Assembly (NCBI GenBank): GCA_965261545.1
Contig: CBDHDF010000002.1
Coordinates: 130,417 to 194,416, forward strand
Direction: 5' to 3'
DNA length: 64,000 nucleotides
Source of the DNA: Bdellovibrionales bacterium
GTDB lineage: Bacteria > Bdellovibrionota > Bdellovibrionia > Bdellovibrionales > UBA1609
Shown here: positions 219-40,861 of the stretch, one piece after another
Layout: the number at the start of each line of letters is the position of its first letter
How positions within the stretch are numbered: the first letter of the stretch is position 1
Notes under the pieces: generated by a model
The model's database searches: none
Told to the model about the DNA's origin: nothing
Seen by the model: the letters and a program-made list of their open reading frames with translations, nothing else
Made by a program: the position numbers and the translations under genes

Positions 219-239
219 GGGAGTTTCAATGAAACTCCC
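219..239 (-). terminator. Possible stem-loop just downstream of tilS, with no U-tract
   Basis: Perfect 9-bp stem gggagtttc/gaaactccc with a 3-nt loop, 26 nt past the tilS stop. No T-run follows on either strand, so its role as a terminator is uncertain. Confidence 0.25.
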
Positions 240-264
240 ACACCGCAGGGATTTTATTTGAATT

Positions 265-1311: not shown

Positions 1312-1388
1312 GCTTTGTGACTCAACTTTAACAGAAATTAAGGTTTGTTATTAATATTGCTATTATTTATCATTGCCTATCATTGTTG

Positions 1389-6063: not shown

Positions 6064-6075
6064 AATGAGACCTCC

Positions 6076-9954: not shown

Positions 9955-10003
9955 TATATCTCCTAATTTTTCTTAATTTCCTTAATATTCCTAACTTTTT
10001 TAA

Positions 10004-14592: not shown

Positions 14593-15258
14593 ATGGCTTT
14601 ATCAAAAAATTCCGCAGACCACTTAAACACAAACCACCCCATCTCTACATTTATTGCCTTTGACCTTGAAACCACAGGCTTTCTTGCTGGGGTGGACCAA
14701 ATTATTGAGATAGGAGCCTTGCGCTTTGTCCATGGGAAGCCTGATGCTGTTTTCTCCACTCTTGTGAATCCAGGAATCCCTATTCCTCCAGGTGCTTCTA
14801 AGGTCAATGGCATCACTGACGATATGGTTCAAGGGAAGCCTTCCATAGAGTCTCTTCTTTCACCTTTTGCAAAATTTTGTGGTGGAAGTGCTTTGGTGGC
14901 TCACAACGCACCATTTGACGCACAATTTTTAACAGCCGCCATTAAGCAACACTGTTCTCCTGCTCCCCGAGGAATTGTCTTGGATACTCTCCCTATGGCT
15001 AGAAAAATATTTCCTGGTCTTTCCAACTATAAACTGGGAACTCTTGTTCAACATTTAAGCATCAAAACCACAAAGTTTCACAGAGCTGAAGAAGACGCTT
15101 CCTACTGCGGTCAACTCTTTATAAAAATTATCGATAGAATGATAAATCAAAGCCACAAAGCTCCCTCCTTGGATCATTGCATTGCAATGACGGGAAAACC
15201 CGCACTTAAATTTCCACACATTGAGCCTGTCCCTAAGCAACTTGAACTCAACTTGTAG
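14593..15258 (+). CDS. DEDDh 3'-5' exonuclease (DnaQ/epsilon-like)
   Basis: Exo motifs are present: FDLETTG (ExoI), VAHNAPFDAQFL (ExoII) and HRAEEDA (ExoIII). The track ORF starts at a GTG at 14422, but the first 57 aa look non-coding, so I chose the ATG at 14593. The start is uncertain. Confidence 0.78.
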   Translation: MALSKNSADHLNTNHPISTFIAFDLETTGFLAGVDQIIEIGALRFVHGKPDAVFSTLVNPGIPIPPGASKVNGITDDMVQGKPSIESLLSPFAKFCGGSALVAHNAPFDAQFLTAAIKQHCSPAPRGIVLDTLPMARKIFPGLSNYKLGTLVQHLSIKTTKFHRAEEDASYCGQLFIKIIDRMINQSHKAPSLDHCIAMTGKPALKFPHIEPVPKQLELNL

Positions 15259-21790: not shown

Positions 21791-21834
21791 CTTGCTAAAA
21801 CCACGGGAACAAATTTTCTACCCCACCCATGTGC

Positions 21835-21902
21835 AAAAAGAAAAGACAGAAGAGAAGAAGAAAAGATAGAAAAGAAGAAGAAAAAAGAAAAATAAGGGAG
21901 AA
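21835..21902 (+). other. 68-nt polypurine (A/G) tract forming the leader of the second FN3-SRCR gene
   Basis: aaaaagaaaagacagaagagaagaagaaaagatagaaaagaagaagaaaaaagaaaaataagggagaa has only 3 pyrimidines in 68 nt and ends in the RBS agggag. Confidence 0.9.
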
Positions 21903-21908
21903 TCAACA

Positions 21909-24900: not shown

Positions 24901-25724
24901 AAGGCATTTTATCCAACGGCAACCACACGCTCATGACCTACCTGCCAGTCAAAGGAATGGCTCTGCCCGCCCTCACCAATTTAACAACCTCCACAGGGGA
25001 GGCCAATCCTGGCACTGGGGGAACCCGGTGGGTGAAATTGTCATGGAATCAAGCGGCAAGTGCACTCATCAACCTCATCGAAAAATATGTTTTGGAAGCC
25101 TCCCTAGATGGAGGGACCACATGGTTTAAGGCTGCAGAAATCCCACGACCCGGCTCTTCCTACAATACGGTCTTTCACACCTATATTGGCAAAGAGTCCG
25201 GCAAGGGAGAAGTATGGAAGTTCCGTGTCTCATCAAAAACCAACGGAGACAGTGGATACGCGGTTTCACCAGCTTCCTCTATTGTGAGTATTTCAACTTC
25301 AACTTTTACGGCCTCGAACCCAAGAATGAACGACGGTGAAGTTCGCCTTGTCGGCGGAACAAGTCCCAACTCGGGACTTGTTTACATGGCATACAATAAC
25401 AGTTGGAGAGCCATTTGTGACACTGCTTGGAATGACCATAACGGCGGTGTGGCATGTCGCCAGATGGGCTATCCAGGTGTGGAAACTTCTGTAGCCAACC
25501 ATGGAAGAATATTATCTGCACCTCTTCATTCCGCTTACTGGATGGACAATGTTGCCTGCGATAGTGCAGAAAGCTCCCTTCTCGATTGTCAGCACTCCAC
25601 ACCCATAGGAACTCATAATTGCGATTTGACGAACGCCATAAGTATCACCTGCACCGATATCGACGCAAACAATAACAACGACTACACCATTGGCCCTCCG
25701 GCCCGAGAGGGAACTGACTTTTAG
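21909..25724 (+). CDS. Giant surface lipoprotein paralog: Pro-rich linker, about 7 FN3 modules, conserved cassette and SRCR
   Basis: 1271 aa with a signal ending LSFLCLG-C-QKNK and a linker PPLGAPPLEAPPLEAPPPSTPTPQ. It has seven FN3 modules and the same YKINPY / TGEA.PGTGGTRWV.LSW / WKFR.S.KT cassette. The SRCR-like end reads GEVRLVGG...WRAICDTAWNDHNGGVACRQMGY...YWMDNVACDSAESSLLDCQH...HNC...ISITC. Confidence 0.9.
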   Translation: MINFRHISNNMHITCKFFHFYKSLHFCLIVTLLSFLCLGCQKNKMQSPIFTKKTPPLGAPPLEAPPLEAPPPSTPTPQTSTAPTNLSANPRDQKIHLAWTTPNNNSSSHPITSHEYRQKQGTGGAYGNWVSIANSGPGENRATSFTLEGLTNGVSYTFQLRAVNNGGPTSSPPSNSVTTSPVTATQASSPRAPRDLRANPRNQGVYLTWAIPSSDGGSSITKYQYQKKLTTTANYGTWENIPNSAPGQENATSFTVMGLTNGQSYHFQMRTVNRPGSGTPSLPVTGMAKRITPAPSAPRRFLASPRDTKAYLIWKTPFSDNGEPITTYEYRQKQVDAADYGDWQGIPNSVPGDLNSTSFTVTGLTNDQAYIFQLRAVSRSGNGLPSSEVIATPTATSQAPMMPRNLAANPRNKGVYLTWTHPIHDGGNLITKYQYRKKMGITEINSYGDWQDISDSAPGEATNYTVTSLTNNQAYTFQLRAVNITGNSGASKEVIVTPMANSQAPQAPRNFNVGPREAEVYLTWTPPIHDGGHPITKYQYRKADGSGDPLVFENWVDIPVSAPGEVHERSYIVTAGLNPFSTYFFEVRAVNITGNSPSSNQVADISLFAAAAIAPTYTFNLSIAPGDRKAHLTWTRTFGHDGGSPIIKYQYAKRLSTDTTSVDQWVDIVGSHFGGIHETSYTLTGLTNDANYIVKLRAMNKIGHSQASESNTFMPFAPPTPPGAPRSFIATTNNGGVDLTWKSPLDDGNGTITKYQYKIFVEGWNVILDWQDISGSGATSFNLPSLSTGFKYKFNLRAVSTHHSSSTRNIHGKAAETILTHEAAPRTLLDFNPSIKVILGIADSYKINPYRDIVGLHSDGNYIINVISHRDSITYNSALKTLSWPSISIDSPDNRRGDRLEGTIQHSSDLNQQHTWGFDFKFFNIIDTLSIQSQDGNIVLSWTVDPGVIPDLFQYREYRGPEYHAGWANIPNSEDGQKNRKSYTLPLVNGTVKSFQVKGILSNGNHTLMTYLPVKGMALPALTNLTTSTGEANPGTGGTRWVKLSWNQAASALINLIEKYVLEASLDGGTTWFKAAEIPRPGSSYNTVFHTYIGKESGKGEVWKFRVSSKTNGDSGYAVSPASSIVSISTSTFTASNPRMNDGEVRLVGGTSPNSGLVYMAYNNSWRAICDTAWNDHNGGVACRQMGYPGVETSVANHGRILSAPLHSAYWMDNVACDSAESSLLDCQHSTPIGTHNCDLTNAISITCTDIDANNNNDYTIGPPAREGTDF
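25335..25655 (+). other. SRCR-like domain-coding segment of gene 2
   Basis: Same six-Cys SRCR pattern as in gene 1, read from the translation. Confidence 0.8.
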
Positions 25725-25776
25725 GAGAAAATTAAGAAGAAATACAAGACCCCCACTGAAAAACATGTAAGAGGCT

Positions 25777-28700
25777 ATGATTATGAATATTATTTGCAAA
25801 ATCCGTAATTCTTATAAAAAAATTCATTTATATCTCATTGTCATCATGATTTCTGCTTTATGTTTAGGTTGCCAAAAAAAGAAAAAGTGGAAGTCCATCA
25901 CTCAGGCTCCCACCACCTCTGCTCCAGTTGCACCCGCTTCCGTACCACAGCAATCACCACCTAGTTCGCCCACACCACAGCCACCACCTGTGTCACCTGT
26001 TTCCCAGCAACAGCAACTCCCACCACCTAGTTCGCCTGCACCACAGCCACCACCTGTTTCCCAGCAACAGCAACTCCCACCACCTAGTTCGCCTGCACCA
26101 CAGCCACCACCTGTTTCCCAGCAACAGCAACTCCCACCACCTAGTTCACCCGCACCACAACCACCACCTGTTTCCCAGCAACAGCAGCAACCACCACCTG
26201 TTCCTCTCGCACAGCAACCCCCTACAGCCCCCAAAGACCTCATGGCAAGCTCTAGAGATACAAGGGTTTATTTAGAGTGGAAGGCTCCTAGCAGTGGTGG
26301 AGGCACAATCACCCATTACCAGTTTCGAAAAAAACCACGCGGCTCACATGAGTATCATGCATGGAAAAATATTCCAAACAGTGGGCCTGGCGGAAGCAAC
26401 AATGCGAGCTTCGGAGTTGGAAGTCTTACCAACAATCATATCTATTATTTTCAGGTGCGGGCGGTGAACAGTGCCCGCCACGGCCCCGCTTCCCGTGAGG
26501 TCGGTGCCAAACCTTCGAGTTTCCCTCGATCTCCCAACTCCCCCCGACTCATTGGAGCCATCCGCCACAGGGGAAATGTTCATTTAACCTGGGACCCACC
26601 TACGGATGATGGTGGAAGCCCTATTGTAAGATACGGGTATTACATACAACACGACGGTAGTAACTACGATAATATTCGTTATAAGAATATTCCCGAAAGT
26701 GGCCCCGGCGAGGTTCATGAAAGAAGTTATCTGGTGGAAGAAAATCTCGCCCGTAATAGTTACCACTTTTTCATAATAGCTTTCAATATGGACGGCCAGA
26801 AGTCCGATCATAGCCGAACATACTCAGTCAACATACCATATCACCATCTGGCTGAGTTCCGCCAAGCGGCAACCTCCCCCCGGAGCCCCCCTCACAACTT
26901 AACTGGCACCGCAAGGGACAAAGAAATTTATTTAAAATGGGGATTTACTTCAAATCATAATAATGGCGGAAAGCCCATCACCCACCACCAGTATCGAAAA
27001 AAAGCAGGAACTGGCTCCTACGAAAGCTGGGTCAACATTCCAAACAGTGCTTTCAGTAAGGCCCATGACAGAAGTTATATGGTGACAGGTCTACAAAATA
27101 ACACGGAATACACCTTTCAGGTACGATCTGTGAATTCTGTGGGTGAAAGTTCAGCATCCAATGAGGTGGCTCTCACTCCGAGGGCATGGGTCCGCCCCCC
27201 TCTTCCCCGAGCCCCTTTGGCCCCCCAAGCCTTCACCGCTGAAAATACATGCACCGACGTCTCAAGAGAACTCAGAACCCATTTATCTTGGAAATCCCCC
27301 CTCGATTCTGGGACCAGCCCCATCACCAAATACCAATATCGAGCCGAAATAGAAGGTTGGAATATAGTAACACAGGATTGGACAGATATACCTCCTGAAA
27401 GAGGCACTCTCTTGCCAAAAAGCCATAGCACCACGGACATCCATTATGGCTTGGAATACACATTTAAAGTTCGGGCTGTGAGTAAGGTCTCTCCCGGTCT
27501 CCCATCCACTGGTCAGAAGGTGACACCAAAGAAGTGGAGGGTTGGAAAAAGAGATATCGGCTTTCAACCATCCCCAAAGGTCGTTGCGGGAATCGCTGGG
27601 AGCTATAAGATCAATCCCTACAGGGACATTCCCAGTTTACCACAAGGGGGAACTTGCACCATAGCACTCACCGAAGGTAGAGGTTTCTCCTACGAGGACA
27701 CAAGCAAGGTTTTGTCTTGGCCATCTTCAATAACTGTGGGGGCAAAAGCCCTAGAAGGGACGATACAATGCTCTCCAAACAACCTCATGTATTGCACAAA
27801 CTTGTCGAACCCCAGCGACACCACCCCACCGCCCCCCCATGACTGGACTTATAGCCTTGAAGTGATAGAGGCCCTTAACACTCTATCCACCCAATCCAAA
27901 AACGGAAGTATTGTGTTGTCCTGGAAAGTTTCCCCCATGGGTACAGTCCCTCACTCATTTGAATATCGCAAGAAAGCGGGGACGAACAACTATAGAAGCT
28001 GGACCCCCATACCCAACAGTGGTGCTGGGCAAGCCAATAGGGAAAGTTATAGTGTTTCATCGGCCAATGGGGTGATGCAAACATTTGAGTTGCGTGCCAA
28101 GTCTTCCCCCGGCACAAATGCGACTTTTTCTGATTACAATGCCGCCAAAGGGATGGCCCTCCCTGCCCTCACCAATTTCAGAGGGACCACAGGAGAGGCA
28201 GACCCTGGCACAGGGGGGAGCCGGTGGGTAAGATTGTCATGGAACCGAATGAGCAGTTCATACCGAAGTTTCATCGCCAAATATGTTTTGGAAGCGTCCA
28301 TGGATGGAGGAACCACATGGTTTACATCATCTGAATTCAACCCACCCAGAAGTGCCTTGGATGCCTCAGCCACCCACACCTATATTGGCACAGAGTTAGG
28401 TCGAAGAGAGATGTGGAAATTCCGCATCTCAGCGAAAACCTCTAGCACCATGGGGGAGATTCGTTCCATACCTTCCTCCACACTCTCTATCCGCACTTCA
28501 AATTTTAATGCCTTGAACGAAAGAATTGCCAATGGTGAGATTCGCCTTATCCACGGAGGGCGAGACAGAGGGGGCGGAGAAGGAGTGGCTCAGTTTGGTC
28601 ATAGTGGAAGTTGGAGAGCCATTTGTCACGACAGCAGTTGGGGAATAGAGGAAGCACAAGTGGCCTGTCGCCGTGCGGGCTATCCAGGTGCAACCAGCAC

Positions 28701-28926
28701 CAAGAAAAGCCAATGGACTCTGTCTTCCCCTCTTCGATCCGCCTATTGGCTGGCCAATGTGAGGTGCAATGGTGAGGAACAGTCTCTTCTCAATTGTGGT
28801 GGTGTGTTCCAGTCCTCCCTCGGTCAACATAATTGCCAACTGACAGATGCGGTCCATATCACCTGCACCACCGTGGATGCAGATAACAACAACAATTACA
28901 CTGTTGGCCCTCCGGAGAAGGAGTAG
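25777..28926 (+). CDS. Giant surface lipoprotein paralog: Pro/Gln repeat linker, about 4 FN3 modules, conserved cassette and SRCR
   Basis: 1049 aa; the start may be the second ATG at 25783. The signal ends ISALCLG-C-QKKKK and is followed by three copies of QQQQLPPPSSPAPQPPPVS. It has four FN3 modules and the conserved cassette. The SRCR-like end reads GEIRLIHGG...WRAICHDSSWGIEEAQVACRRAGY...YWLANVRCNGEEQSLLNCG...HNC...VHITC. Confidence 0.9.
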   Translation: MIMNIICKIRNSYKKIHLYLIVIMISALCLGCQKKKKWKSITQAPTTSAPVAPASVPQQSPPSSPTPQPPPVSPVSQQQQLPPPSSPAPQPPPVSQQQQLPPPSSPAPQPPPVSQQQQLPPPSSPAPQPPPVSQQQQQPPPVPLAQQPPTAPKDLMASSRDTRVYLEWKAPSSGGGTITHYQFRKKPRGSHEYHAWKNIPNSGPGGSNNASFGVGSLTNNHIYYFQVRAVNSARHGPASREVGAKPSSFPRSPNSPRLIGAIRHRGNVHLTWDPPTDDGGSPIVRYGYYIQHDGSNYDNIRYKNIPESGPGEVHERSYLVEENLARNSYHFFIIAFNMDGQKSDHSRTYSVNIPYHHLAEFRQAATSPRSPPHNLTGTARDKEIYLKWGFTSNHNNGGKPITHHQYRKKAGTGSYESWVNIPNSAFSKAHDRSYMVTGLQNNTEYTFQVRSVNSVGESSASNEVALTPRAWVRPPLPRAPLAPQAFTAENTCTDVSRELRTHLSWKSPLDSGTSPITKYQYRAEIEGWNIVTQDWTDIPPERGTLLPKSHSTTDIHYGLEYTFKVRAVSKVSPGLPSTGQKVTPKKWRVGKRDIGFQPSPKVVAGIAGSYKINPYRDIPSLPQGGTCTIALTEGRGFSYEDTSKVLSWPSSITVGAKALEGTIQCSPNNLMYCTNLSNPSDTTPPPPHDWTYSLEVIEALNTLSTQSKNGSIVLSWKVSPMGTVPHSFEYRKKAGTNNYRSWTPIPNSGAGQANRESYSVSSANGVMQTFELRAKSSPGTNATFSDYNAAKGMALPALTNFRGTTGEADPGTGGSRWVRLSWNRMSSSYRSFIAKYVLEASMDGGTTWFTSSEFNPPRSALDASATHTYIGTELGRREMWKFRISAKTSSTMGEIRSIPSSTLSIRTSNFNALNERIANGEIRLIHGGRDRGGGEGVAQFGHSGSWRAICHDSSWGIEEAQVACRRAGYPGATSTKKSQWTLSSPLRSAYWLANVRCNGEEQSLLNCGGVFQSSLGQHNCQLTDAVHITCTTVDADNNNNYTVGPPEKE
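26005..26175 (+). repeat. 57-bp x 3 in-frame tandem repeat (QQQQLPPPSSPAPQPPPVS), with partial copies flanking
   Basis: Three consecutive 19-codon units are visible in both the DNA and the translation. The alternative-frame ORFs 25902..26243(-) and 25928..26275(+) are shadows of this repeat. Confidence 0.9.
28534..28870 (+). other. SRCR-like domain-coding segment of gene 3
   Basis: Same SRCR pattern, with a slightly longer first loop (GGRDRGGGEGVAQFGHSGSW). Confidence 0.75.
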
Positions 28927-29014
28927 CAAGCCTAGAGGCAAAGAAGGAAGGACAAATGAAAGTTAAATTGGTTTCACACATTTTAGAGCCATCTGATGGA
29001 GGTCTCTCGTCGTG

Positions 29015-30709
29015 CTATGGAGATCGGGAATCGGGAGGACTGTACTCACGAAATGTACCATCTTTTACCTGAAGGCCGTTGAGCAAGGGGTCTGTTCCTA
29101 GTTTTTGCACACTGTGCTTAAGAATCCCCATGCTATCAGGATCGTCTTGTAAAACCTGGATATAGTAAACAAGAACAGCATTTTCATGGGCCTCATGCTC
29201 AAGCCCTGGAAGGGTATTGCCCGCTGGCACAGCCAGTGTTTCGTAGACCGGGAGCACCCTTTGTTGAAAACTATAGCAGTCTTTTTTCACATCATTGAGG
29301 GGTGTTAACCTTGTATCATAGGCAGCCACGTCGGGATCTTTGAACAAAGGGTTTCTATGCTGTTTTATCTGCACAAGAACACTTTCCTCTCCATCTGGGT
29401 TATCCTTGATATTTTCACGGTCGAGAGCCGCCGTATAACGAGTGGACCGACCCGTCCTTTGGGCAGCAAAGTAGATAAATGTTTCAATTCCATCTAAAAC
29501 CCCATCCTTATCTGTATCAAAAGCTTCAGGGTTTCCCCTCGTCATCGTAAGACCTTGCGTACGACCACTGCCTGAATGCTTCCTAATTTCATGTTCTTCA
29601 CATTTTGTCAGTAAATCAAAGTCTTGGTCAGAACGATCCTGACATGCTGGCAACAATGTTCCCGGATACCTAAAGCGCAGCCAGTGAAAAAAGTCTCCAT
29701 AGCCATCTCCAAAACTAAAGCGGTTGGCGGGATCAAAGGTTTTCCCCTCCTTCTTTAATTCTTCAGCATACAAATTGTTCATTGTCCTTTCATCGCGATC
29801 ACACATTCCATCTGCATCTGAGTCCACATCAACCCTTCCGTCAAAACAAAATCCAGCATTGAGATTGTAAACCAAAAATTCCTTAAGACTCCATGGCATC
29901 ACAGTATTGGTGACAAAAAGTTGATCCAAATCCCATTTGTCACCACTCTCAAAATTGACAAAATTTCCACCACCCACTTTTGCCATATCTTCAAGTATCT
30001 TAATCGCACCGGCATTGCCATTGCCATAAAAGGCTGTGCTTAAATAAATTTTCCCACCTACCGTATTGGCAAGACTGGAAACTGTGGATTTATTATCTCC
30101 ATCATTTGGTCGTCCATCTGAAATAAGAAATACGATATATTTTGACCTTTCATCGGGAAACTTCAACATGTCATTCTCAATGGCACTTTTTGTCATCATG
30201 AGGGCCAGTCCATACTGTGTACCTCCACGGAAGGGATTTGCCCGGATTTTATTGGTGGCTAATTTGACTTCATTGGAATCCTTTGTAAAAGTGGCCTTCG
30301 TTTTGTCACCACTGTCATGAATAAGAGCCCTAGGTTGGTTATTAAATAAGATGACTCCATACTGATAGTGCTTTTGATTTTGCAGGGACAAGTCATCTAC
30401 AAATTTGTCAATATTGTCAGCACGCTTGGACCCATTTTTGTCTGTCCCGCTGTTACTTCCTGAGATATCCACCACAAACATAATCTTTATAAAGGTTTTT
30501 TTGTCTAGAGGATCGTCAATACAGAAATTATCTTGAGAAGCCACAGACGATGCCTCTATGGGAGGTGAAGGAACAATAGATACATCCGCACATCCATTGA
30601 AGATCAAAGCCAAGGCTAAAGCCAAAGCCCAAGACAAAAAAAGAGGATAAATCCGAGATTTTCCACGCTGTTTTAAAATGATATGTCCTATATGATTTGA
30701 ACTGTACAT
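29015..30709 (-). CDS. vWA-domain lipoprotein with thrombospondin-type-3-like Ca-binding repeats (copy 1 of 3)
   Basis: Signal ...LALALALIFNG-C-ADV. The MIDAS-type vWA start is KIMFVVDISGSNSG and is followed by FLISDGRPNDGD. Acidic Ca-binding repeats are DVDSDADGMCDRDE and DTDKDGVLDGIE. I chose the ATG at 30709 (preceded by aggggga); the track uses the GTG at 30724. Confidence 0.85.
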   Translation of the reverse strand: MYSSNHIGHIILKQRGKSRIYPLFLSWALALALALIFNGCADVSIVPSPPIEASSVASQDNFCIDDPLDKKTFIKIMFVVDISGSNSGTDKNGSKRADNIDKFVDDLSLQNQKHYQYGVILFNNQPRALIHDSGDKTKATFTKDSNEVKLATNKIRANPFRGGTQYGLALMMTKSAIENDMLKFPDERSKYIVFLISDGRPNDGDNKSTVSSLANTVGGKIYLSTAFYGNGNAGAIKILEDMAKVGGGNFVNFESGDKWDLDQLFVTNTVMPWSLKEFLVYNLNAGFCFDGRVDVDSDADGMCDRDERTMNNLYAEELKKEGKTFDPANRFSFGDGYGDFFHWLRFRYPGTLLPACQDRSDQDFDLLTKCEEHEIRKHSGSGRTQGLTMTRGNPEAFDTDKDGVLDGIETFIYFAAQRTGRSTRYTAALDRENIKDNPDGEESVLVQIKQHRNPLFKDPDVAAYDTRLTPLNDVKKDCYSFQQRVLPVYETLAVPAGNTLPGLEHEAHENAVLVYYIQVLQDDPDSMGILKHSVQKLGTDPLLNGLQVKDGTFREYSPPDSRSP

Positions 30710-30838
30710 GCTTCCCCCTAACACTTTAAGGATGCAAGTTAGAGGCCAAAAAATAGGGACTTCTCTTTGAGTTGAATGGGGGGATGAGGTCGGATCGGGT
30801 CGGGCTGATGTTTATAGTTTGAACAAGCTTTATAAAAA

Positions 30839-32085
30839 CTAACAGTGACCTAAAGCCATGAGACACTTGGGGCAAATTCCTTCGTATTCCCCCATTGTAC
30901 CTAAATGAGAACTATAATGCCAACAACGCGGACACTTATCACCAGCAGCTGAGTGGGCTTCCACTTTGAACTCATCAGCTTTCAGTTCATTGGCCTCTTG
31001 AAGTTGAACCTGGGAAACAATAAGAATTTCTCTCAAATAATCAAATGGACCCTTTTCTTGGCCCTCTCCCTCTAAGGGGAGGTCTTGACCCTTCTGAATA
31101 CCCTGAAGAACCTCTAAGAAAGTGGGTGGAGCATAAATAGTCACAGCGGCATCCAAACTAGAACCAATAACCTTATCCTTTCTCATGGGTTCAAGGACCT
31201 TAGACACAGCTGATCGCACCTCCATAACTTTTTCAACTTGCTCTTGAATTTTCTTGTTTTGCCATGCCGGTTGAAATTGAGGAAAATTCTCAAGAAAAAC
31301 AGAAGGCGATCTCGTACCTGGAATATAACTATAAACCTCCTCACTGAGAAAACTTAAAATGGGGGCCATCAAAGTATTGAGGTGGGTTAACAGTTCATAA
31401 AATACTGTTTGAGAGGACCTTCGATTTCGCCCTTCTTTCGACCAAGTATAGAGGCGATCTTTTAGAATATCTAAGTAGGTCGCTGACAAGTCCACAGTAT
31501 AAAAATGGTTTACAGTATGATAAACCTTACAATATTCATAGGAGTCATAAAAAGATGTGACATCTTTGACCAACTGGTTGAGCTTTATGAGAGCCCATTG
31601 ATCCAAGGGAGGCATATGGGAAAATTCAACCCCATGTATTTCTGGGTCGAAGTCCACAAGATTGCCCAACAAAAACCGAAGGGTGTTTCTGATGCGTCGA
31701 TAAGACTCCGTCACTCTTTGGAAAATTTCTTGGCCCGCATTGACATCTTGGCCATAGTCCTCATAAGCCACCCAAAGTCTAAGAATCTCAGCTCCACTGC
31801 TCTTAATAACCTCTGCGGGGTCCACAACATTTCCACGACTTTTGCTCATTTTCATGCCCTCGCTATCGTTGACAAAACCATGGGTGAGCAGGGCCTTAAA
31901 AGGAGGTTCACCATAGGCGGCAAGAGAAGAAACAAGACTTGTTTGAAACCAACCACGGTGCTGATCGCTTCCCTCAATGTAAATATCTGCGGGAAAACCC
32001 AACTCCTCCCTCTTTTTTTGAACCGCCGTATGACAAACTCCTGAGTCAAACCACACATCGAGAATATCCCGGCCATGGGTAAAAA
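30839..32085 (-). pseudogene. Truncated 3' fragment of ileS (C-terminal ~405-415 codons) created by the amplification
   Basis: Identical to the last 1247 nt of full-length ileS (37099..38345). It lacks the HIGH motif and the editing domain. It retains KMSKS, the anticodon-binding region and the CPRC...CPKC zinc finger. A TAA stop lies 5 codons upstream of the junction in frame. Confidence 0.9.
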
Positions 32086-32144
32086 ATGAAAGTTAAATTG
32101 GTTTCACACATTTTAGAGCCATCTGATGGAGGTCTCTCGTCGTG

Positions 32145-33839
32145 CTATGGAGATCGGGAATCGGGAGGACTGTACTCACGAAATGTACCATCTTTTACCT
32201 GAAGGCCGTTGAGCAAGGGGTCTGTTCCTAGTTTTTGCACACTGTGCTTAAGAATCCCCATGCTATCAGGATCGTCTTGTAAAACCTGGATATAGTAAAC
32301 AAGAACAGCATTTTCATGGGCCTCATGCTCAAGCCCTGGAAGGGTATTGCCCGCTGGCACAGCCAGTGTTTCGTAGACCGGGAGCACCCTTTGTTGAAAA
32401 CTATAGCAGTCTTTTTTCACATCATTGAGGGGTGTTAACCTTGTATCATAGGCAGCCACGTCGGGATCTTTGAACAAAGGGTTTCTATGCTGTTTTATCT
32501 GCACAAGAACACTTTCCTCTCCATCTGGGTTATCCTTGATATTTTCACGGTCGAGAGCCGCCGTATAACGAGTGGACCGACCCGTCCTTTGGGCAGCAAA
32601 GTAGATAAATGTTTCAATTCCATCTAAAACCCCATCCTTATCTGTATCAAAAGCTTCAGGGTTTCCCCTCGTCATCGTAAGACCTTGCGTACGACCACTG
32701 CCTGAATGCTTCCTAATTTCATGTTCTTCACATTTTGTCAGTAAATCAAAGTCTTGGTCAGAACGATCCTGACATGCTGGCAACAATGTTCCCGGATACC
32801 TAAAGCGCAGCCAGTGAAAAAAGTCTCCATAGCCATCTCCAAAACTAAAGCGGTTGGCGGGATCAAAGGTTTTCCCCTCCTTCTTTAATTCTTCAGCATA
32901 CAAATTGTTCATTGTCCTTTCATCGCGATCACACATTCCATCTGCATCTGAGTCCACATCAACCCTTCCGTCAAAACAAAATCCAGCATTGAGATTGTAA
33001 ACCAAAAATTCCTTAAGACTCCATGGCATCACAGTATTGGTGACAAAAAGTTGATCCAAATCCCATTTGTCACCACTCTCAAAATTGACAAAATTTCCAC
33101 CACCCACTTTTGCCATATCTTCAAGTATCTTAATCGCACCGGCATTGCCATTGCCATAAAAGGCTGTGCTTAAATAAATTTTCCCACCTACCGTATTGGC
33201 AAGACTGGAAACTGTGGATTTATTATCTCCATCATTTGGTCGTCCATCTGAAATAAGAAATACGATATATTTTGACCTTTCATCGGGAAACTTCAACATG
33301 TCATTCTCAATGGCACTTTTTGTCATCATGAGGGCCAGTCCATACTGTGTACCTCCACGGAAGGGATTTGCCCGGATTTTATTGGTGGCTAATTTGACTT
33401 CATTGGAATCCTTTGTAAAAGTGGCCTTCGTTTTGTCACCACTGTCATGAATAAGAGCCCTAGGTTGGTTATTAAATAAGATGACTCCATACTGATAGTG
33501 CTTTTGATTTTGCAGGGACAAGTCATCTACAAATTTGTCAATATTGTCAGCACGCTTGGACCCATTTTTGTCTGTCCCGCTGTTACTTCCTGAGATATCC
33601 ACCACAAACATAATCTTTATAAAGGTTTTTTTGTCTAGAGGATCGTCAATACAGAAATTATCTTGAGAAGCCACAGACGATGCCTCTATGGGAGGTGAAG
33701 GAACAATAGATACATCCGCACATCCATTGAAGATCAAAGCCAAGGCTAAAGCCAAAGCCCAAGACAAAAAAAGAGGATAAATCCGAGATTTTCCACGCTG
33801 TTTTAAAATGATATGTCCTATATGATTTGAACTGTACAT
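32145..33839 (-). CDS. vWA-domain lipoprotein (copy 2 of 3, identical)
   Basis: Identical translation to 29015..30709, offset 3130 bp. Confidence 0.85.
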   Translation of the reverse strand: MYSSNHIGHIILKQRGKSRIYPLFLSWALALALALIFNGCADVSIVPSPPIEASSVASQDNFCIDDPLDKKTFIKIMFVVDISGSNSGTDKNGSKRADNIDKFVDDLSLQNQKHYQYGVILFNNQPRALIHDSGDKTKATFTKDSNEVKLATNKIRANPFRGGTQYGLALMMTKSAIENDMLKFPDERSKYIVFLISDGRPNDGDNKSTVSSLANTVGGKIYLSTAFYGNGNAGAIKILEDMAKVGGGNFVNFESGDKWDLDQLFVTNTVMPWSLKEFLVYNLNAGFCFDGRVDVDSDADGMCDRDERTMNNLYAEELKKEGKTFDPANRFSFGDGYGDFFHWLRFRYPGTLLPACQDRSDQDFDLLTKCEEHEIRKHSGSGRTQGLTMTRGNPEAFDTDKDGVLDGIETFIYFAAQRTGRSTRYTAALDRENIKDNPDGEESVLVQIKQHRNPLFKDPDVAAYDTRLTPLNDVKKDCYSFQQRVLPVYETLAVPAGNTLPGLEHEAHENAVLVYYIQVLQDDPDSMGILKHSVQKLGTDPLLNGLQVKDGTFREYSPPDSRSP

Positions 33840-33968
33840 GCTTCCCCCTAACACTTTAAGGATGCAAGTTAGAGGCCAAAAAATAGGGACTTCTCTTTGA
33901 GTTGAATGGGGGGATGAGGTCGGATCGGGTCGGGCTGATGTTTATAGTTTGAACAAGCTTTATAAAAA

Positions 33969-35215
33969 CTAACAGTGACCTAAAGCCATGAGACACTTGG
34001 GGCAAATTCCTTCGTATTCCCCCATTGTACCTAAATGAGAACTATAATGCCAACAACGCGGACACTTATCACCAGCAGCTGAGTGGGCTTCCACTTTGAA
34101 CTCATCAGCTTTCAGTTCATTGGCCTCTTGAAGTTGAACCTGGGAAACAATAAGAATTTCTCTCAAATAATCAAATGGACCCTTTTCTTGGCCCTCTCCC
34201 TCTAAGGGGAGGTCTTGACCCTTCTGAATACCCTGAAGAACCTCTAAGAAAGTGGGTGGAGCATAAATAGTCACAGCGGCATCCAAACTAGAACCAATAA
34301 CCTTATCCTTTCTCATGGGTTCAAGGACCTTAGACACAGCTGATCGCACCTCCATAACTTTTTCAACTTGCTCTTGAATTTTCTTGTTTTGCCATGCCGG
34401 TTGAAATTGAGGAAAATTCTCAAGAAAAACAGAAGGCGATCTCGTACCTGGAATATAACTATAAACCTCCTCACTGAGAAAACTTAAAATGGGGGCCATC
34501 AAAGTATTGAGGTGGGTTAACAGTTCATAAAATACTGTTTGAGAGGACCTTCGATTTCGCCCTTCTTTCGACCAAGTATAGAGGCGATCTTTTAGAATAT
34601 CTAAGTAGGTCGCTGACAAGTCCACAGTATAAAAATGGTTTACAGTATGATAAACCTTACAATATTCATAGGAGTCATAAAAAGATGTGACATCTTTGAC
34701 CAACTGGTTGAGCTTTATGAGAGCCCATTGATCCAAGGGAGGCATATGGGAAAATTCAACCCCATGTATTTCTGGGTCGAAGTCCACAAGATTGCCCAAC
34801 AAAAACCGAAGGGTGTTTCTGATGCGTCGATAAGACTCCGTCACTCTTTGGAAAATTTCTTGGCCCGCATTGACATCTTGGCCATAGTCCTCATAAGCCA
34901 CCCAAAGTCTAAGAATCTCAGCTCCACTGCTCTTAATAACCTCTGCGGGGTCCACAACATTTCCACGACTTTTGCTCATTTTCATGCCCTCGCTATCGTT
35001 GACAAAACCATGGGTGAGCAGGGCCTTAAAAGGAGGTTCACCATAGGCGGCAAGAGAAGAAACAAGACTTGTTTGAAACCAACCACGGTGCTGATCGCTT
35101 CCCTCAATGTAAATATCTGCGGGAAAACCCAACTCCTCCCTCTTTTTTTGAACCGCCGTATGACAAACTCCTGAGTCAAACCACACATCGAGAATATCCC
35201 GGCCATGGGTAAAAA
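33969..35215 (-). pseudogene. Truncated 3' fragment of ileS (second copy)
   Basis: Identical to 30839..32085, offset 3130 bp. Confidence 0.9.
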
Positions 35216-35274
35216 ATGAAAGTTAAATTGGTTTCACACATTTTAGAGCCATCTGATGGAGGTCTCTCGTCGTG

Positions 35275-36969
35275 CTATGGAGATCGGGAATCGGGAGGAC
35301 TGTACTCACGAAATGTACCATCTTTTACCTGAAGGCCGTTGAGCAAGGGGTCTGTTCCTAGTTTTTGCACACTGTGCTTAAGAATCCCCATGCTATCAGG
35401 ATCGTCTTGTAAAACCTGGATATAGTAAACAAGAACAGCATTTTCATGGGCCTCATGCTCAAGCCCTGGAAGGGTATTGCCCGCTGGCACAGCCAGTGTT
35501 TCGTAGACCGGGAGCACCCTTTGTTGAAAACTATAGCAGTCTTTTTTCACATCATTGAGGGGTGTTAACCTTGTATCATAGGCAGCCACGTCGGGATCTT
35601 TGAACAAAGGGTTTCTATGCTGTTTTATCTGCACAAGAACACTTTCCTCTCCATCTGGGTTATCCTTGATATTTTCACGGTCGAGAGCCGCCGTATAACG
35701 AGTGGACCGACCCGTCCTTTGGGCAGCAAAGTAGATAAATGTTTCAATTCCATCTAAAACCCCATCCTTATCTGTATCAAAAGCTTCAGGGTTTCCCCTC
35801 GTCATCGTAAGACCTTGCGTACGACCACTGCCTGAATGCTTCCTAATTTCATGTTCTTCACATTTTGTCAGTAAATCAAAGTCTTGGTCAGAACGATCCT
35901 GACATGCTGGCAACAATGTTCCCGGATACCTAAAGCGCAGCCAGTGAAAAAAGTCTCCATAGCCATCTCCAAAACTAAAGCGGTTGGCGGGATCAAAGGT
36001 TTTCCCCTCCTTCTTTAATTCTTCAGCATACAAATTGTTCATTGTCCTTTCATCGCGATCACACATTCCATCTGCATCTGAGTCCACATCAACCCTTCCG
36101 TCAAAACAAAATCCAGCATTGAGATTGTAAACCAAAAATTCCTTAAGACTCCATGGCATCACAGTATTGGTGACAAAAAGTTGATCCAAATCCCATTTGT
36201 CACCACTCTCAAAATTGACAAAATTTCCACCACCCACTTTTGCCATATCTTCAAGTATCTTAATCGCACCGGCATTGCCATTGCCATAAAAGGCTGTGCT
36301 TAAATAAATTTTCCCACCTACCGTATTGGCAAGACTGGAAACTGTGGATTTATTATCTCCATCATTTGGTCGTCCATCTGAAATAAGAAATACGATATAT
36401 TTTGACCTTTCATCGGGAAACTTCAACATGTCATTCTCAATGGCACTTTTTGTCATCATGAGGGCCAGTCCATACTGTGTACCTCCACGGAAGGGATTTG
36501 CCCGGATTTTATTGGTGGCTAATTTGACTTCATTGGAATCCTTTGTAAAAGTGGCCTTCGTTTTGTCACCACTGTCATGAATAAGAGCCCTAGGTTGGTT
36601 ATTAAATAAGATGACTCCATACTGATAGTGCTTTTGATTTTGCAGGGACAAGTCATCTACAAATTTGTCAATATTGTCAGCACGCTTGGACCCATTTTTG
36701 TCTGTCCCGCTGTTACTTCCTGAGATATCCACCACAAACATAATCTTTATAAAGGTTTTTTTGTCTAGAGGATCGTCAATACAGAAATTATCTTGAGAAG
36801 CCACAGACGATGCCTCTATGGGAGGTGAAGGAACAATAGATACATCCGCACATCCATTGAAGATCAAAGCCAAGGCTAAAGCCAAAGCCCAAGACAAAAA
36901 AAGAGGATAAATCCGAGATTTTCCACGCTGTTTTAAAATGATATGTCCTATATGATTTGAACTGTACAT
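35275..36969 (-). CDS. vWA-domain lipoprotein (copy 3 of 3, identical; directly downstream of intact ileS)
   Basis: Identical translation, offset 6260 bp from copy 1. Confidence 0.85.
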   Translation of the reverse strand: MYSSNHIGHIILKQRGKSRIYPLFLSWALALALALIFNGCADVSIVPSPPIEASSVASQDNFCIDDPLDKKTFIKIMFVVDISGSNSGTDKNGSKRADNIDKFVDDLSLQNQKHYQYGVILFNNQPRALIHDSGDKTKATFTKDSNEVKLATNKIRANPFRGGTQYGLALMMTKSAIENDMLKFPDERSKYIVFLISDGRPNDGDNKSTVSSLANTVGGKIYLSTAFYGNGNAGAIKILEDMAKVGGGNFVNFESGDKWDLDQLFVTNTVMPWSLKEFLVYNLNAGFCFDGRVDVDSDADGMCDRDERTMNNLYAEELKKEGKTFDPANRFSFGDGYGDFFHWLRFRYPGTLLPACQDRSDQDFDLLTKCEEHEIRKHSGSGRTQGLTMTRGNPEAFDTDKDGVLDGIETFIYFAAQRTGRSTRYTAALDRENIKDNPDGEESVLVQIKQHRNPLFKDPDVAAYDTRLTPLNDVKKDCYSFQQRVLPVYETLAVPAGNTLPGLEHEAHENAVLVYYIQVLQDDPDSMGILKHSVQKLGTDPLLNGLQVKDGTFREYSPPDSRSP

Positions 36970-37098
36970 GCTTCCCCCTAACACTTTAAGGATGCAAGTT
37001 AGAGGCCAAAAAATAGGGACTTCTCTTTGAGTTGAATGGGGGGATGAGGTCGGATCGGGTCGGGCTGATGTTTATAGTTTGAACAAGCTTTATAAAAA

Positions 37099-40038
37099 CT
37101 AACAGTGACCTAAAGCCATGAGACACTTGGGGCAAATTCCTTCGTATTCCCCCATTGTACCTAAATGAGAACTATAATGCCAACAACGCGGACACTTATC
37201 ACCAGCAGCTGAGTGGGCTTCCACTTTGAACTCATCAGCTTTCAGTTCATTGGCCTCTTGAAGTTGAACCTGGGAAACAATAAGAATTTCTCTCAAATAA
37301 TCAAATGGACCCTTTTCTTGGCCCTCTCCCTCTAAGGGGAGGTCTTGACCCTTCTGAATACCCTGAAGAACCTCTAAGAAAGTGGGTGGAGCATAAATAG
37401 TCACAGCGGCATCCAAACTAGAACCAATAACCTTATCCTTTCTCATGGGTTCAAGGACCTTAGACACAGCTGATCGCACCTCCATAACTTTTTCAACTTG
37501 CTCTTGAATTTTCTTGTTTTGCCATGCCGGTTGAAATTGAGGAAAATTCTCAAGAAAAACAGAAGGCGATCTCGTACCTGGAATATAACTATAAACCTCC
37601 TCACTGAGAAAACTTAAAATGGGGGCCATCAAAGTATTGAGGTGGGTTAACAGTTCATAAAATACTGTTTGAGAGGACCTTCGATTTCGCCCTTCTTTCG
37701 ACCAAGTATAGAGGCGATCTTTTAGAATATCTAAGTAGGTCGCTGACAAGTCCACAGTATAAAAATGGTTTACAGTATGATAAACCTTACAATATTCATA
37801 GGAGTCATAAAAAGATGTGACATCTTTGACCAACTGGTTGAGCTTTATGAGAGCCCATTGATCCAAGGGAGGCATATGGGAAAATTCAACCCCATGTATT
37901 TCTGGGTCGAAGTCCACAAGATTGCCCAACAAAAACCGAAGGGTGTTTCTGATGCGTCGATAAGACTCCGTCACTCTTTGGAAAATTTCTTGGCCCGCAT
38001 TGACATCTTGGCCATAGTCCTCATAAGCCACCCAAAGTCTAAGAATCTCAGCTCCACTGCTCTTAATAACCTCTGCGGGGTCCACAACATTTCCACGACT
38101 TTTGCTCATTTTCATGCCCTCGCTATCGTTGACAAAACCATGGGTGAGCAGGGCCTTAAAAGGAGGTTCACCATAGGCGGCAAGAGAAGAAACAAGACTT
38201 GTTTGAAACCAACCACGGTGCTGATCGCTTCCCTCAATGTAAATATCTGCGGGAAAACCCAACTCCTCCCTCTTTTTTTGAACCGCCGTATGACAAACTC
38301 CTGAGTCAAACCACACATCGAGAATATCCCGGCCATGGGTAAAAATTGTTCCCTGGCACTCCGAGCATTGGTAACCCTCTGTGAATTCCGAAGCGGGAGT
38401 GGAGTAAAAAGCCTCCAACCCTTGTCCTGTGGTTTTCATTTTATCTGCCACTCGATTCATGATCTCCGAGTGAGCCAATGGGGCCTCACATTGAGTGCAG
38501 AAAAAAACGGGCAATGGGACCCCCCAAATTCTTTGACGACTGAGACACCAGTCGGGACTGTGGCTTAACATGGATTCCAATCGCTGCTGCCCCCAGGAAG
38601 GGAAAAAAGCAATTTTATCTCGGCTGGCCTCTAGGGCTTTTGCCCGAATGGGGTGTTTCTCATCATCCATGCGTATAAACCACTGAGGGGTGGCTCTAAA
38701 AATGAGAGGGGTTTTGGTCCGCGGATTATGGGGGTAACTGTGAACCAGCTCACTGACACCGAGCAGATGCCCCGAAACCTTTAAATCATCGACAATCTTG
38801 GAGTTGGCCGTCCAAATTTTTTCCCCCGCATATTTGGAAACTTCTGAGGTATAGCGTCCGGCCTTATCCACGGGACTCTCCACGGGGAGCTTATACTTTT
38901 GAGCCACATAGTAATCATCCATACCATGGCCCGGTGCCGTATGCACACAGCCTGTCCCTGCCTCTAAGGTCACATGTTCACCAAGAATCACTAAGGAACT
39001 TCTTTCCATAAAGGGGTGCCTAGCCTTCATGCCCTCAAGCTCCGTCCCCTTAAAACGACCCATTTCCACAAGTCTGAAACCACAGGCTTTTTCCATGGAT
39101 TCTTTAAGGTCACAGGCAATAATAATATAATCTAAGGATTCTACAGAAGAGGATGGAGGAGCACCTGAAGTCTGCAAAGAGCCTACAGAACTTAAAGAGT
39201 TGTCACCGCTCTCAATCCACTTGAGTTGGAAGAGGCCATAATCAAAGTCCCCATGGAGAGCTATCCCATAGTTGGCAGGAAGGGTCCAAGGAGTGGTTGT
39301 CCAAATGACAAAAGAGAGGGAATCCCCTTCTCCAAAGAATCTCTCTACTTTTTCTTCTATTTTCTTTCTCCCAAATTTTTCCAGTTCAAATTTTACGAAA
39401 ATACTCAAACTCTTGTGATCACGATACTCAACCTCGGCCGCTGCCAGTGCTGTTTGAAGGGCGGGGCACCAATAAACAGGCTTTTCCCCATGGTAAAGAA
39501 GCCCCTTATCAAATATCTTCGCCACAACGGAAATCTCCTCAGCCTCATAGTCCGAGGTCATTGTAAGGTAGGGGTTTTCCCAATCTGCTAAAACCCCCAA
39601 TCTCGAAAACTGATCTCGATGCTTGACCACCCAACCTTGAGCCTCCTTACGGCAAAGCTCTCGAACTTGCTTGTCTGCCATCTCCTTGCGCTGTGAGCCA
39701 AGCTTTTTCATCACATTGAGTTCAATGGGTAATCCGTGGCAATCCCAGCCAGGGATAAAGGCGGCATAGAAACCTTTCATATTTTTGTATTTCATTGTTA
39801 TATCTTTTAAAATTCTATTCAAAGCATGGCCCACATGGATATCACCATTGGAGTAAATAGGGCCATCGGGCATCACAAACTTAGGGCGTCCCTGATTTTT
39901 TTCTACCATTTTCTTATAGATTTTTGTGGACTGCCACTTTGCAACAATTTCGGGCTCTTTCTTGGGAAGATTGCCCTTCATGGGAAAGTTTGTTTGAGGG
40001 AGATTGAGTGTGGATTTGAATCCGTTTTCTTGGGCCAT
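37099..40038 (-). CDS. ileS: Isoleucine--tRNA ligase (class I, type 1 with C-terminal zinc finger)
   Basis: 979 aa with the HIGH-type motif GDIHVGHALN, KMSKS, and C-terminal CPRCWHY...CPKC. Overall IleRS similarity is recognisable by eye. Confidence 0.95.
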   Translation of the reverse strand: MAQENGFKSTLNLPQTNFPMKGNLPKKEPEIVAKWQSTKIYKKMVEKNQGRPKFVMPDGPIYSNGDIHVGHALNRILKDITMKYKNMKGFYAAFIPGWDCHGLPIELNVMKKLGSQRKEMADKQVRELCRKEAQGWVVKHRDQFSRLGVLADWENPYLTMTSDYEAEEISVVAKIFDKGLLYHGEKPVYWCPALQTALAAAEVEYRDHKSLSIFVKFELEKFGRKKIEEKVERFFGEGDSLSFVIWTTTPWTLPANYGIALHGDFDYGLFQLKWIESGDNSLSSVGSLQTSGAPPSSSVESLDYIIIACDLKESMEKACGFRLVEMGRFKGTELEGMKARHPFMERSSLVILGEHVTLEAGTGCVHTAPGHGMDDYYVAQKYKLPVESPVDKAGRYTSEVSKYAGEKIWTANSKIVDDLKVSGHLLGVSELVHSYPHNPRTKTPLIFRATPQWFIRMDDEKHPIRAKALEASRDKIAFFPSWGQQRLESMLSHSPDWCLSRQRIWGVPLPVFFCTQCEAPLAHSEIMNRVADKMKTTGQGLEAFYSTPASEFTEGYQCSECQGTIFTHGRDILDVWFDSGVCHTAVQKKREELGFPADIYIEGSDQHRGWFQTSLVSSLAAYGEPPFKALLTHGFVNDSEGMKMSKSRGNVVDPAEVIKSSGAEILRLWVAYEDYGQDVNAGQEIFQRVTESYRRIRNTLRFLLGNLVDFDPEIHGVEFSHMPPLDQWALIKLNQLVKDVTSFYDSYEYCKVYHTVNHFYTVDLSATYLDILKDRLYTWSKEGRNRRSSQTVFYELLTHLNTLMAPILSFLSEEVYSYIPGTRSPSVFLENFPQFQPAWQNKKIQEQVEKVMEVRSAVSKVLEPMRKDKVIGSSLDAAVTIYAPPTFLEVLQGIQKGQDLPLEGEGQEKGPFDYLREILIVSQVQLQEANELKADEFKVEAHSAAGDKCPRCWHYSSHLGTMGEYEGICPKCLMALGHC

Positions 40039-40183: not shown

Positions 40184-40861
40184 CTATTTGATCTTTTCAA
40201 ACCCCAATGCCACCAGAAAGCGAAGGGCTTCGTTGGGGTGGCTCAAGTTGAGCCGCTCACAAGTCATATGAATGCAGGTTCTCGTCCTCTCATCAATAAC
40301 TAGAACTTGGGCATGCCCCCCCTGGGCAGGAGCAGCCAAAATCTGGTCATAATGACCCCCAGCCCCTTGGACAGGAGCAGCCAAAATCTGGTCATGATGG
40401 CTTCCAGCTCCTTGGGCAGGAGTAGCCAAAGTTTCATGAAAAGATAAATCATCTTCGACAACGTCGGATCCTAAATTTTCTCCCAAGATTTCCCTAGGTG
40501 GCGTAGGTGGCGATGGCGATTCAAGTGGACCAACTTGAGCCACTTGAGGGGACTCCTCCTCATCATCAAAGGCTTTTAGGCCCTGAGCCAAGTTTTTGAG
40601 ATCAGATTGAAACTCCTCAGGACTCACGCGGCTCTTGGCTCGTCCCCTTTGACGCTGTTGCTGCTTAAACAAAGAAACCATGTCATCTGCCGACCGTGCT
40701 AATTCACGAATGGACGGAGGTTGGTGCTGCAGCCAATCATAGGCTTCAACAAGCATTTCTCGAGTATAGGCTTGAGGGGGCAAGGGTCTTATCATGATAG
40801 AACCCATACTAGGGACTCTCTTCTCGTCCATCAAGATCAAATCAACACTGCACCCCTCCAT
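40184..40861 (-). CDS. Hypothetical protein with internal repeats of about 15 aa
   Basis: 225-aa ORF. The central part repeats the unit A.PAQGAG.H.DQIL (about 48 bp at the DNA level, 40300-40440). No motif was recognised and the start is uncertain (several in-frame Met). Confidence 0.5.
   Translation of the reverse strand: MEGCSVDLILMDEKRVPSMGSIMIRPLPPQAYTREMLVEAYDWLQHQPPSIRELARSADDMVSLFKQQQRQRGRAKSRVSPEEFQSDLKNLAQGLKAFDDEEESPQVAQVGPLESPSPPTPPREILGENLGSDVVEDDLSFHETLATPAQGAGSHHDQILAAPVQGAGGHYDQILAAPAQGGHAQVLVIDERTRTCIHMTCERLNLSHPNEALRFLVALGFEKIK

Follow-up and report, generated by a model that had tools for sequence, protein, structure and literature searches.

Is the perfect threefold repeat beside ileS in this Bdellovibrionales bacterium a property of the cell or a product of its assembly? 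The type of event is already known in either case: the locus records either an ordinary, recent amplification of a gene or an error of long-read assembly, and the question is which of the two. The window, that is, the whole 64-kb stretch of DNA analysed, was compared with itself, and positions 28954-38345 proved to be exactly periodic, with a period of 3130 nt and no mismatches, for a total of 3 x 3130 + 2 nt. The longest run in which each base equals the one 3130 nt further on is 6262 nt, starting at 28954, and a repeat search returned copies at 28954, 32084 and 35214, spaced by 3130 nt at 100% identity. The three units are direct, head-to-tail and byte-identical, and such a periodicity cannot have arisen by chance. 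The features of the locus are as follows.

25777-28926, plus strand: third FN3-SRCR gene, the left neighbour outside the repeat, convergent with vWA copy 1
28954-38345: whole periodic array, from self-comparison and repeat search
28956-32085, minus strand: unit 1, promoter-distal, with vWA copy 1, spacer and ileS' fragment
29015-30709, minus strand: vWA gene (putative lipoprotein), copy 1, 564 aa from ATG, with the Shine-Dalgarno-like run GGGGGAAGC just upstream
30710-30838, minus strand: ileS-vWA spacer, 129 nt, repeated at 33840-33968 and 36970-37098
30839-32085, minus strand: ileS' fragment 1, 1247 nt from the 3' end of ileS, corresponding to IleRS aa ~565-979
30894-30923, minus strand: sigma-70-like match TTGGCA-18-TACAAT, 10/12, within the ileS 3' end, a consensus match only
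32084-32087: novel junction 1, GGGTAAAAA joined to ATGAAAGTT, with a 2-nt AA microhomology
32086-35215, minus strand: unit 2, with vWA copy 2, spacer and ileS' fragment
32145-33839, minus strand: vWA gene, copy 2, identical
33969-35215, minus strand: ileS' fragment 2, identical to fragment 1
35214-35217: novel junction 2, same as junction 1
35216-38345, minus strand: unit 3, with vWA copy 3, spacer and the 3' 1247 nt of intact ileS
35275-36969, minus strand: vWA gene, copy 3, identical, directly downstream of intact ileS
37099-40038, minus strand: full-length ileS, 979 aa, its last 1247 nt within unit 3

The first-pass annotation had described three perfect 3130-bp units at 28956-38345, and this description holds, except that the periodicity begins 2 nt earlier. 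Its account of the unit content (vWA gene, 129-nt spacer and last 1247 nt of ileS) agrees with the ORFs and domain matches, and the full-length ileS was rightly assigned to the rightmost unit only, one 979-aa IleRS standing against two 405-aa fragments. It had also noted about 2 nt (aa) shared by the parental flanks and an array that borders the FN3-SRCR cluster; we likewise find a 2-nt AA overlap with no other homology, and the third FN3-SRCR ORF ends at 28926, 27 nt before the first periodic base.

The junctions constrain how the array could have formed. Within the window, the only two copies of the junction 46-mer lie at 32056 and 35186, whereas the left and right parental flanks occur once each; the 30-mer across the junction is GGCCATGGGTAAAAAATGAAAGTTAAATTGG. 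Beyond the 2 nt (AA) of microhomology, no further homology was detected between the two parental breakpoints: their local alignment scored 10, shuffled sequences averaged 10.5, and not one 10-mer is common to both. For want of any similarity above shuffled controls, the idea that a breakpoint repeat caused either the event or a loop in the assembly graph was rejected. A transposon or integrative mobile element can be dismissed as well, since no transposase gene lies within the unit, which codes for the vWA gene and ileS' only, no inverted repeats of at least 40 nt occur in the 64-kb window, and a 2-nt overlap is not a target-site duplication. Direct repeats, one type of novel join, unique parental flanks and a microhomology join, the features that define a tandem gene amplification in sequence, are all present. 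Perfect periodicity, two identical junctions, unique flanks and the lack of a mobile element count towards a real amplification; zero divergence, equally expected of an assembly artefact, counts against it.

We then consider what the units encode. The 979-aa protein is an isoleucyl-tRNA synthetase, matching TIGR00392 with 883 bits (cut-off 621) and carrying the HIGH-type motif (HVGH, aa 68), KMSKS (aa 643) and the editing domain. The two 405-aa ORFs match the C-terminal part of IleRS and keep KMSKS, the anticodon-binding domain and the Zn finger, without HVGH and the editing domain. In fragment 1 an in-frame TAA lies just upstream of the junction, and the sole start is a GTG at 32056 that has no Shine-Dalgarno sequence. 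Since they lack the HIGH-type motif, the editing domain and a credible start, these fragments are dead by-products and not functional IleRS. The 405-aa protein is already catalogued in databases.

The other gene in the unit encodes a protein of 564 aa from ATG, or 569 aa if the ORF is counted from an upstream GTG, and this protein belongs to the von Willebrand factor A domain class. It matches VWA_2 (PF13519) with 45 bits against a cut-off of 27 and VWA (PF00092) with 40.3 bits against 23.8, and its top Foldseek matches over aa ~70-265 are all vWA domains (probability 1.0, TM to target 0.6-0.7). The MIDAS motif is intact (D81-x-S83-x-S85), and D81, S83 and S85 together with D198 are invariant across 14 homologues. 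When the family profile was run against PDB sequences, only a marginal vWA match came back, and NCBIfam gave none for the protein. The N-terminus (...LALALALIFNG-C40) reads as a signal peptide followed by Cys40, which is invariant in the family, with a lipobox that is non-canonical at -3/-2 (F, N). BatB of Bacteroides, the vWFA domain of LapA and the I-domain of the anthrax toxin receptor share the fold (aa ~70-265) and the DxSxS MIDAS with this protein; unlike them, it has a C-terminal part of 300 aa, with conserved Cys residues and two DxDxDG loops, that has no solved or Pfam relative. The TSP3-repeat label that had been attached to the protein finds no Pfam support (no match to PF02412 or PF18884 even at E<=10) and survives at the motif level only, as just two DxDxDGxxDxxE-type, Ca-loop-like motifs at aa 296 and 398. 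PF18884 is present in two distant homologues.

All three vWA copies are preceded by the same 129-nt spacer, Shine-Dalgarno sequence and 1.25 kb of upstream DNA. By periodicity the sigma-70-like match recurs at 34024-34053 and 37154-37183, that is, one per unit. Neither the unit edge nor the spacer showed an intrinsic terminator or hairpin above shuffled controls.

Comparison with relatives places the array in context. Conservation of the vWA family extends across Bdellovibrionales, and the family is confined to Bdellovibrionales-type MAGs. A scan of genome contigs with the family profile retrieved 22 loci, none closer than 59% at the amino-acid level, and ileS lies within 10 kb of vWA at none of the 22, so none of them offers a single-copy outgroup for precisely this locus. 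Four MAGs have two vWA copies on separate contigs, and L014 also has a partial second copy in tandem. The order downstream of ileS in relatives is ileS-lspA-lgt, and the DNA at this point is already a site of rearrangement in the lineage. Only one further large contig has a short IleRS (P0178, in L023), and this is an ordinary frameshift-split ileS followed by lspA-lgt and not a duplication. Neither the array junction nor a diverged or fixed duplication was found in any relative searched. The junction also had no matches in JGI metagenome contigs, a result that is uninformative because the best JGI vWA protein is at most 51% identical and the organism is absent from the JGI data. The contig of a close strain, L024 (98.3% nt identity), breaks off at window position 21426, within FN3 gene 1, ~7.5 kb before the array. 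The rearrangement point, the conservation of the vWA family and the two-copy MAGs were also counted for a real amplification, and the failure to find the same junction in any relative searched was counted against it.

Taken together, we lean, by a modest degree, towards a tandem amplification that is genuine and very recent, in a Bdellovibrionales bacterium with a reduced genome. In a first step, a RecA-independent illegitimate join would have linked a site within ileS, after codon ~564, to the DNA 59 nt past the vWA stop codon, using the 2-nt microhomology and doubling a segment of 3130 nt; in a second step, the two copies of 3.1 kb would have undergone unequal homologous exchange and so yielded the third. 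The outcome would be one intact ileS, three expressible vWA copies and two ileS' remnants, an arrangement that should be viable because the essential ileS is intact and the vWA gene is complete with its regulatory DNA. With no intrinsic terminator between the genes, transcription of the vWA copies would start by read-through from ileS, at a promoter in the ileS 3' end carried by every unit, or by both routes, and vWA dosage could thereby rise up to ~3-fold. The copy number in cells may differ from the three assembled. The first-pass interpretation, an illegitimate duplication followed by homologous expansion, fits the anatomy of the locus, and it too allowed for either a real amplification or an assembly artefact; the part of it that Pfam does not support is the TSP3-repeat label.

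The process would be a familiar one. Duplication-amplification in Salmonella and E. coli, reportedly worked out by Roth, Andersson and Hughes, is said to underlie many cases of heteroresistance. Those amplifications share with the array head-to-tail units, one novel join with little or no microhomology, zero divergence and truncated genes at the unit edge; they also involve unequal homologous recombination and increased dosage, both of which we infer for the array. They differ in having been demonstrated by experiment, where the selective agent is known and changes in copy number were followed, whereas the array is a single assembled sequence and its bacterium is uncultured. In bacteria proficient in recombination, tandem repeats of kilobase size are unstable, as the work of Roth and Andersson established, and for this reason selection, a bottleneck or weak recombination would be needed for the array to be the consensus genotype.

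A rather unlikely alternative is that the array is an artefact of assembly or library preparation. The true state would then be a single copy in the order FN3-SRCR, vWA, ileS, and the extra units would come from false duplication, an over-traversed loop or one or a few chimeric reads. Perfectly identical copies in a whole-integer number are in line with this explanation. The L024 contig bears an assembler-style name that states 3.59x coverage (ctg96415_3.59x_l), which we take, with some uncertainty, to follow the naming style of a long-read assembler and which might suggest the same class of assembler for the data source. In addition, other ~1-Mb contigs of the group hold truncated genes whose products match proteins of the window exactly (P0071, and P0322 with 100% identity over 164 aa); such pieces could stem from chimeric assemblies. 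Long-read metagenome assemblers, metaMDBG in particular, are documented to emit long direct duplications unsupported by any read (Trigodet et al., bioRxiv 10.1101/2025.04.22.649783), and the array resembles these in being a long perfect direct repeat in an apparent long-read metagenome contig. However, the documented false repeats, which are diagnosed by read clipping and a coverage drop, are mostly in short contigs (bioRxiv 10.1101/2025.04.22.649783), whereas the array sits in one of 920 kb. A graph loop would also have no sequence basis: because the non-homologous breakpoints give the assembler no repeat to loop on, junction-bearing molecules are the simplest source of the junction, which normally needs at least one read containing it. 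An uncollapsed, perfect array of 9.4 kb on a contig of this length presumably implies long reads, and the array is short enough for ordinary HiFi or ONT reads to span. Finally, base-level quality is high throughout the window, as judged from its long ORFs, all of which are intact, including those of 1944 aa and 979 aa.

Less probable again, and in our view doubtful, is that the duplication is real but that the population is mostly single-copy, or a mixture of 1 to n copies, with the assembled path unrepresentative of the majority. Tandem amplifications are intrinsically heterogeneous and unstable, and assemblers can follow the variant of a minor subpopulation; the finding of no diverged or fixed duplication in relatives is also compatible with such a genotype.

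What the locus means depends on which explanation is correct. If it is an artefact, it would illustrate cleanly how a long-read MAG can acquire a false tandem duplication, here one that has added two surplus vWA genes and two spurious 'class I tRNA ligase' genes to public databases. If the amplification is real, it would have been caught at the earliest point of its history, before any divergence, in an uncultured bacterium whose genome measures ~0.9 Mb, and the vWA putative lipoprotein would be flagged as a gene under current dosage selection, beside eukaryote-like surface proteins. A possible parallel is Octomom in Wolbachia wMelPop, whose amplification, described by Chrostek and Teixeira in 2015, reportedly alters the interaction with the host according to copy number. 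Like the array, it amplifies a small block of genes in tandem in a bacterium with a reduced genome, the bacterium of the array being only presumptively host-associated; in contrast, Octomom spans ~21 kb and 8 genes, is bounded by repeats and has a copy number that was measured and linked to phenotype, while the array unit, of 3.1 kb, contains a single intact gene and lacks repeats at its flanks. We regard it as a long shot that the array is both real and held at high frequency by selection, with the dosage of a MIDAS adhesin-like lipoprotein tripled beside the FN3-SRCR cluster as an Octomom-like copy-number 'dial' for interaction with host or prey. If true, such a dial would be the first described in the lineage, in a bacterium that is probably host-associated and whose FN3-SRCR cluster is eukaryote-like.

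A self-comparison of the window established that the array is strictly periodic. Shifted by 3130 nt against itself, the sequence agrees base for base over a longest run of 6262 nt from 28954 onwards, so that the periodic region covers 28954-38345, or 3 x 3130 + 2 nt. The units and the genes that define them are as follows.

28956-32085, minus strand: unit 1, letter-identical to units 2 and 3
32086-35215, minus strand: unit 2, letter-identical to units 1 and 3
35216-38345, minus strand: unit 3, letter-identical to units 1 and 2
36969-35275, minus strand: vWA ORF of unit 3, 564 aa, following a 129-nt spacer 3' of ileS
40038-37099, minus strand: full-length ileS, 979 aa (TIGR00392, 883 bits), with HVGH at aa 68 and KMSKS at aa 643

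An independent repeat search placed the copies at 28954, 32084 and 35214 with a spacing of 3130 nt and 100% identity, and there are no N bases in the window. The three identical 3130-nt units described in the first-pass annotation were thus borne out by both approaches, and such an array cannot have arisen by chance. The junction sequence proposed there was also recovered: the junction 46-mer occurs exactly twice in the window, at 32056 and 35186, while each of the parental flanks occurs once. Immediately to the left of the array lies the third gene of a cluster encoding FN3 repeats and SRCR domains; this gene is convergent to the array, and its ORF ends at 28926.

Each unit boundary lies 59 nt past the stop codon of the vWA gene, and the next unit begins within ileS after codon ~564; a unit therefore holds only the last 1247 nt of ileS. 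This 3' piece (ileS') retains the KMSKS motif, the anticodon-binding domain and the Zn finger, and lacks both the HIGH-type motif and the editing domain. An in-frame TAA stands directly upstream of the junction, and the sole start for ileS', partly by our reading of the sequence, is a GTG without a ribosome-binding site. On these grounds the two ileS' pieces look like dead by-products; nevertheless, the source record annotates each as a gene of 405 aa. Neither the spacer nor the edge of the unit contains a terminator-like hairpin, and both fold no better than shuffled sequence. A sigma-70-like match (10/12, a consensus match only) at 30923-30894 lies inside the ileS 3' end and is thus present in every unit.

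The amplified gene encodes a protein with an apparent N-terminal signal peptide ending at Cys40 and a vWA domain that scores over both Pfam cut-offs (VWA_2, 45 bits; VWA, 40 bits). Its AlphaFold2 model has a mean pLDDT of 71.8, with values mostly of 76-93 across the vWA domain, and every one of its top PDB hits is a vWA domain (ITIH1, complement factor B/C2, ANTXR2, Bacteroides BatB and the LapA vWFA domain; TM-scores of 0.6-0.7, normalised to target). In 14 homologues the MIDAS residues D81-x-S83-x-S85 and D198 do not vary. Cysteines are conserved in the C-terminal 300 aa, which also contain a pair of DxDxDGxxDxxE loops (aa 296 and aa 398). Since no Pfam TSP3 match appeared in the protein even at E<=10, the earlier TSP3 label holds at the motif level only. 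The protein is likely a metal-dependent, ligand-binding envelope lipoprotein. The family is restricted to Bdellovibrionales/Bdellovibrionia-type MAGs, four of which carry two paralogues at separate loci; at L014 a partial second copy stands in tandem with the first. At 8 of the 22 loci (L004, L005, L006, L007, L010, L011, L013 and L016) the vWA gene is convergent to a conserved cluster, ExbB-ExbD-ExbD-TonB_C/FHA-large TPR, similar to a motor cluster of the Agl/Glt or Tol-like type. A functional link between the two is speculative.

We then compared the locus with those of relatives. The vWA protein, IleRS and the ileS' fragment all lie on one 920,239-bp contig (NCBI/ENA) of a genome-reduced Bdellovibrionales MAG, which, judged by assembly quality, we infer must come from long reads. 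No IleRS in the database is nearer than 69% identity. In the nearest relatives with a readable ileS locus, L025 (IleRS 69% identical) and L023, lspA and lgt come next after ileS, and upstream of ileS they share a conserved ORF with the window. This comparison refers to the following positions.

37099 in the window, downstream of ileS
10001-12721 in L023
3459-7700 in L025

Neither lspA (signal peptidase II) nor lgt is present in the whole 64 kb of the window, where ileS is instead followed by the putative vWA lipoprotein gene. The ileS-vWA adjacency is therefore derived, and the site, at which synteny breaks exactly at the array, was already a rearrangement point. None of the relatives examined contains the junction or the ileS' fragment. 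The contig of a close strain, L024 (ENA ERZ26694896, ctg96415_3.59x_l), stops within the first FN3 gene, before the array.

At the sequence level the array shows the traits of a tandem amplification. The breakpoints have only the dinucleotide AA in common; within 400 nt on either side there is no shared 10-mer, and a local alignment scores 10 against a shuffle mean of 10.5. There is no transposase in the unit and there are no long inverted repeats in the window. These features fit an illegitimate join followed by expansion, the textbook route of duplication-amplification from work in Salmonella and E. coli. A RecA-independent illegitimate join would first create the duplication, and unequal homologous exchange between the 3.1-kb copies would then give three.

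We lean slightly towards a real amplification. With no breakpoint repeat on which an assembly graph could loop, the array is most simply derived from a molecule that bears the junction; base-level quality is high, all long ORFs in the window being intact, and the 9.4-kb array is within the span of ordinary long reads. A pure assembly artefact, to which the missing repeat runs counter, is rather unlikely, though the copies are perfectly identical and two other contigs of this group, of ~1 Mb, carry truncated gene pieces 100% identical to parts of window proteins. One, of 1,061,510 bp, has a vWA gene split into 415 aa (P0001, 94% identical) and 119 aa (P0071), the latter 100% identical to the C-terminal 118 aa of the vWA protein; the other, of 1,107,388 bp, has a 164-aa MgtE C-terminal piece (P0322) identical to the final 164 aa of the window MgtE. 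Such pieces could reflect recombination between co-occurring strains, pseudogenisation or chimeric assembly. Also on the side of an artefact, the contig naming of related ENA assemblies (ctgN_coverage-x_l) may point to a metaMDBG-class assembler, an uncertain reading of our own. Trigodet et al. report that assemblers of long-read metagenomes can produce direct duplications for which no read exists, that repeats are most numerous with metaMDBG, and that a contig may trace a variant present in one read only (10.1101/2025.04.22.649783). A real array confined to a minor or variable genotype is improbable. Of the earlier reading, amplification versus artefact, the observation stands, the anatomy fits and the interpretation, with its two alternatives, is reasonable.

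Three successive large genes at 15956-28926 on the plus strand (1944, 1271 and 1049 aa) encode up to 14 FN3 repeats, and each gene ends in one SRCR (scavenger receptor cysteine-rich) domain, typically a metazoan domain. The Pro/Gln-rich linker of the third contains an in-frame 57-nt x 3.7 tandem repeat (25994-26203, 95% matches); another, 45-nt x 2.5, lies at 40318-40430 within a 225-aa ORF upstream of ileS. The GC content of the cluster is 47-50%, versus 29-39% in the 14 kb to its left, where four successive large ORFs (1389-14044, minus strand; 1250, 310, 1292 and 1346 aa) match no Pfam family. Their conservation at 98% nt in L024 identifies them as real genes. Over window 25-21426, L024 is 98.3% identical in these orphan genes (the value for 25-14854) and only 92-93% in FN3 gene 1, which evolves faster than its flanks. 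In L024, an insertion of ~2 kb that includes a DDE transposase also separates the RNase T-like gene from the 1346-aa gene. The gene at 58029-59090 (minus strand; Phage_integrase plus SAM-like N domain) encodes a XerC/D-type tyrosine recombinase, probably the one that resolves chromosome dimers; as called, its ORF overlaps a fadE-like acyl-CoA dehydrogenase gene at the start of the latter.

The presence of a cluster of eukaryote-like surface proteins in a Bdellovibrionales genome of ~0.9 Mb hints at host association. The array works like classical bacterial duplication-amplification and, if the organism is host-associated, resembles the amplification of Octomom in Wolbachia wMelPop; at most it adds one more case to a known type of event. 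As assembled, it leaves one ileS intact beside three complete vWA genes that share the same upstream DNA, by which vWA dosage may be raised up to threefold.
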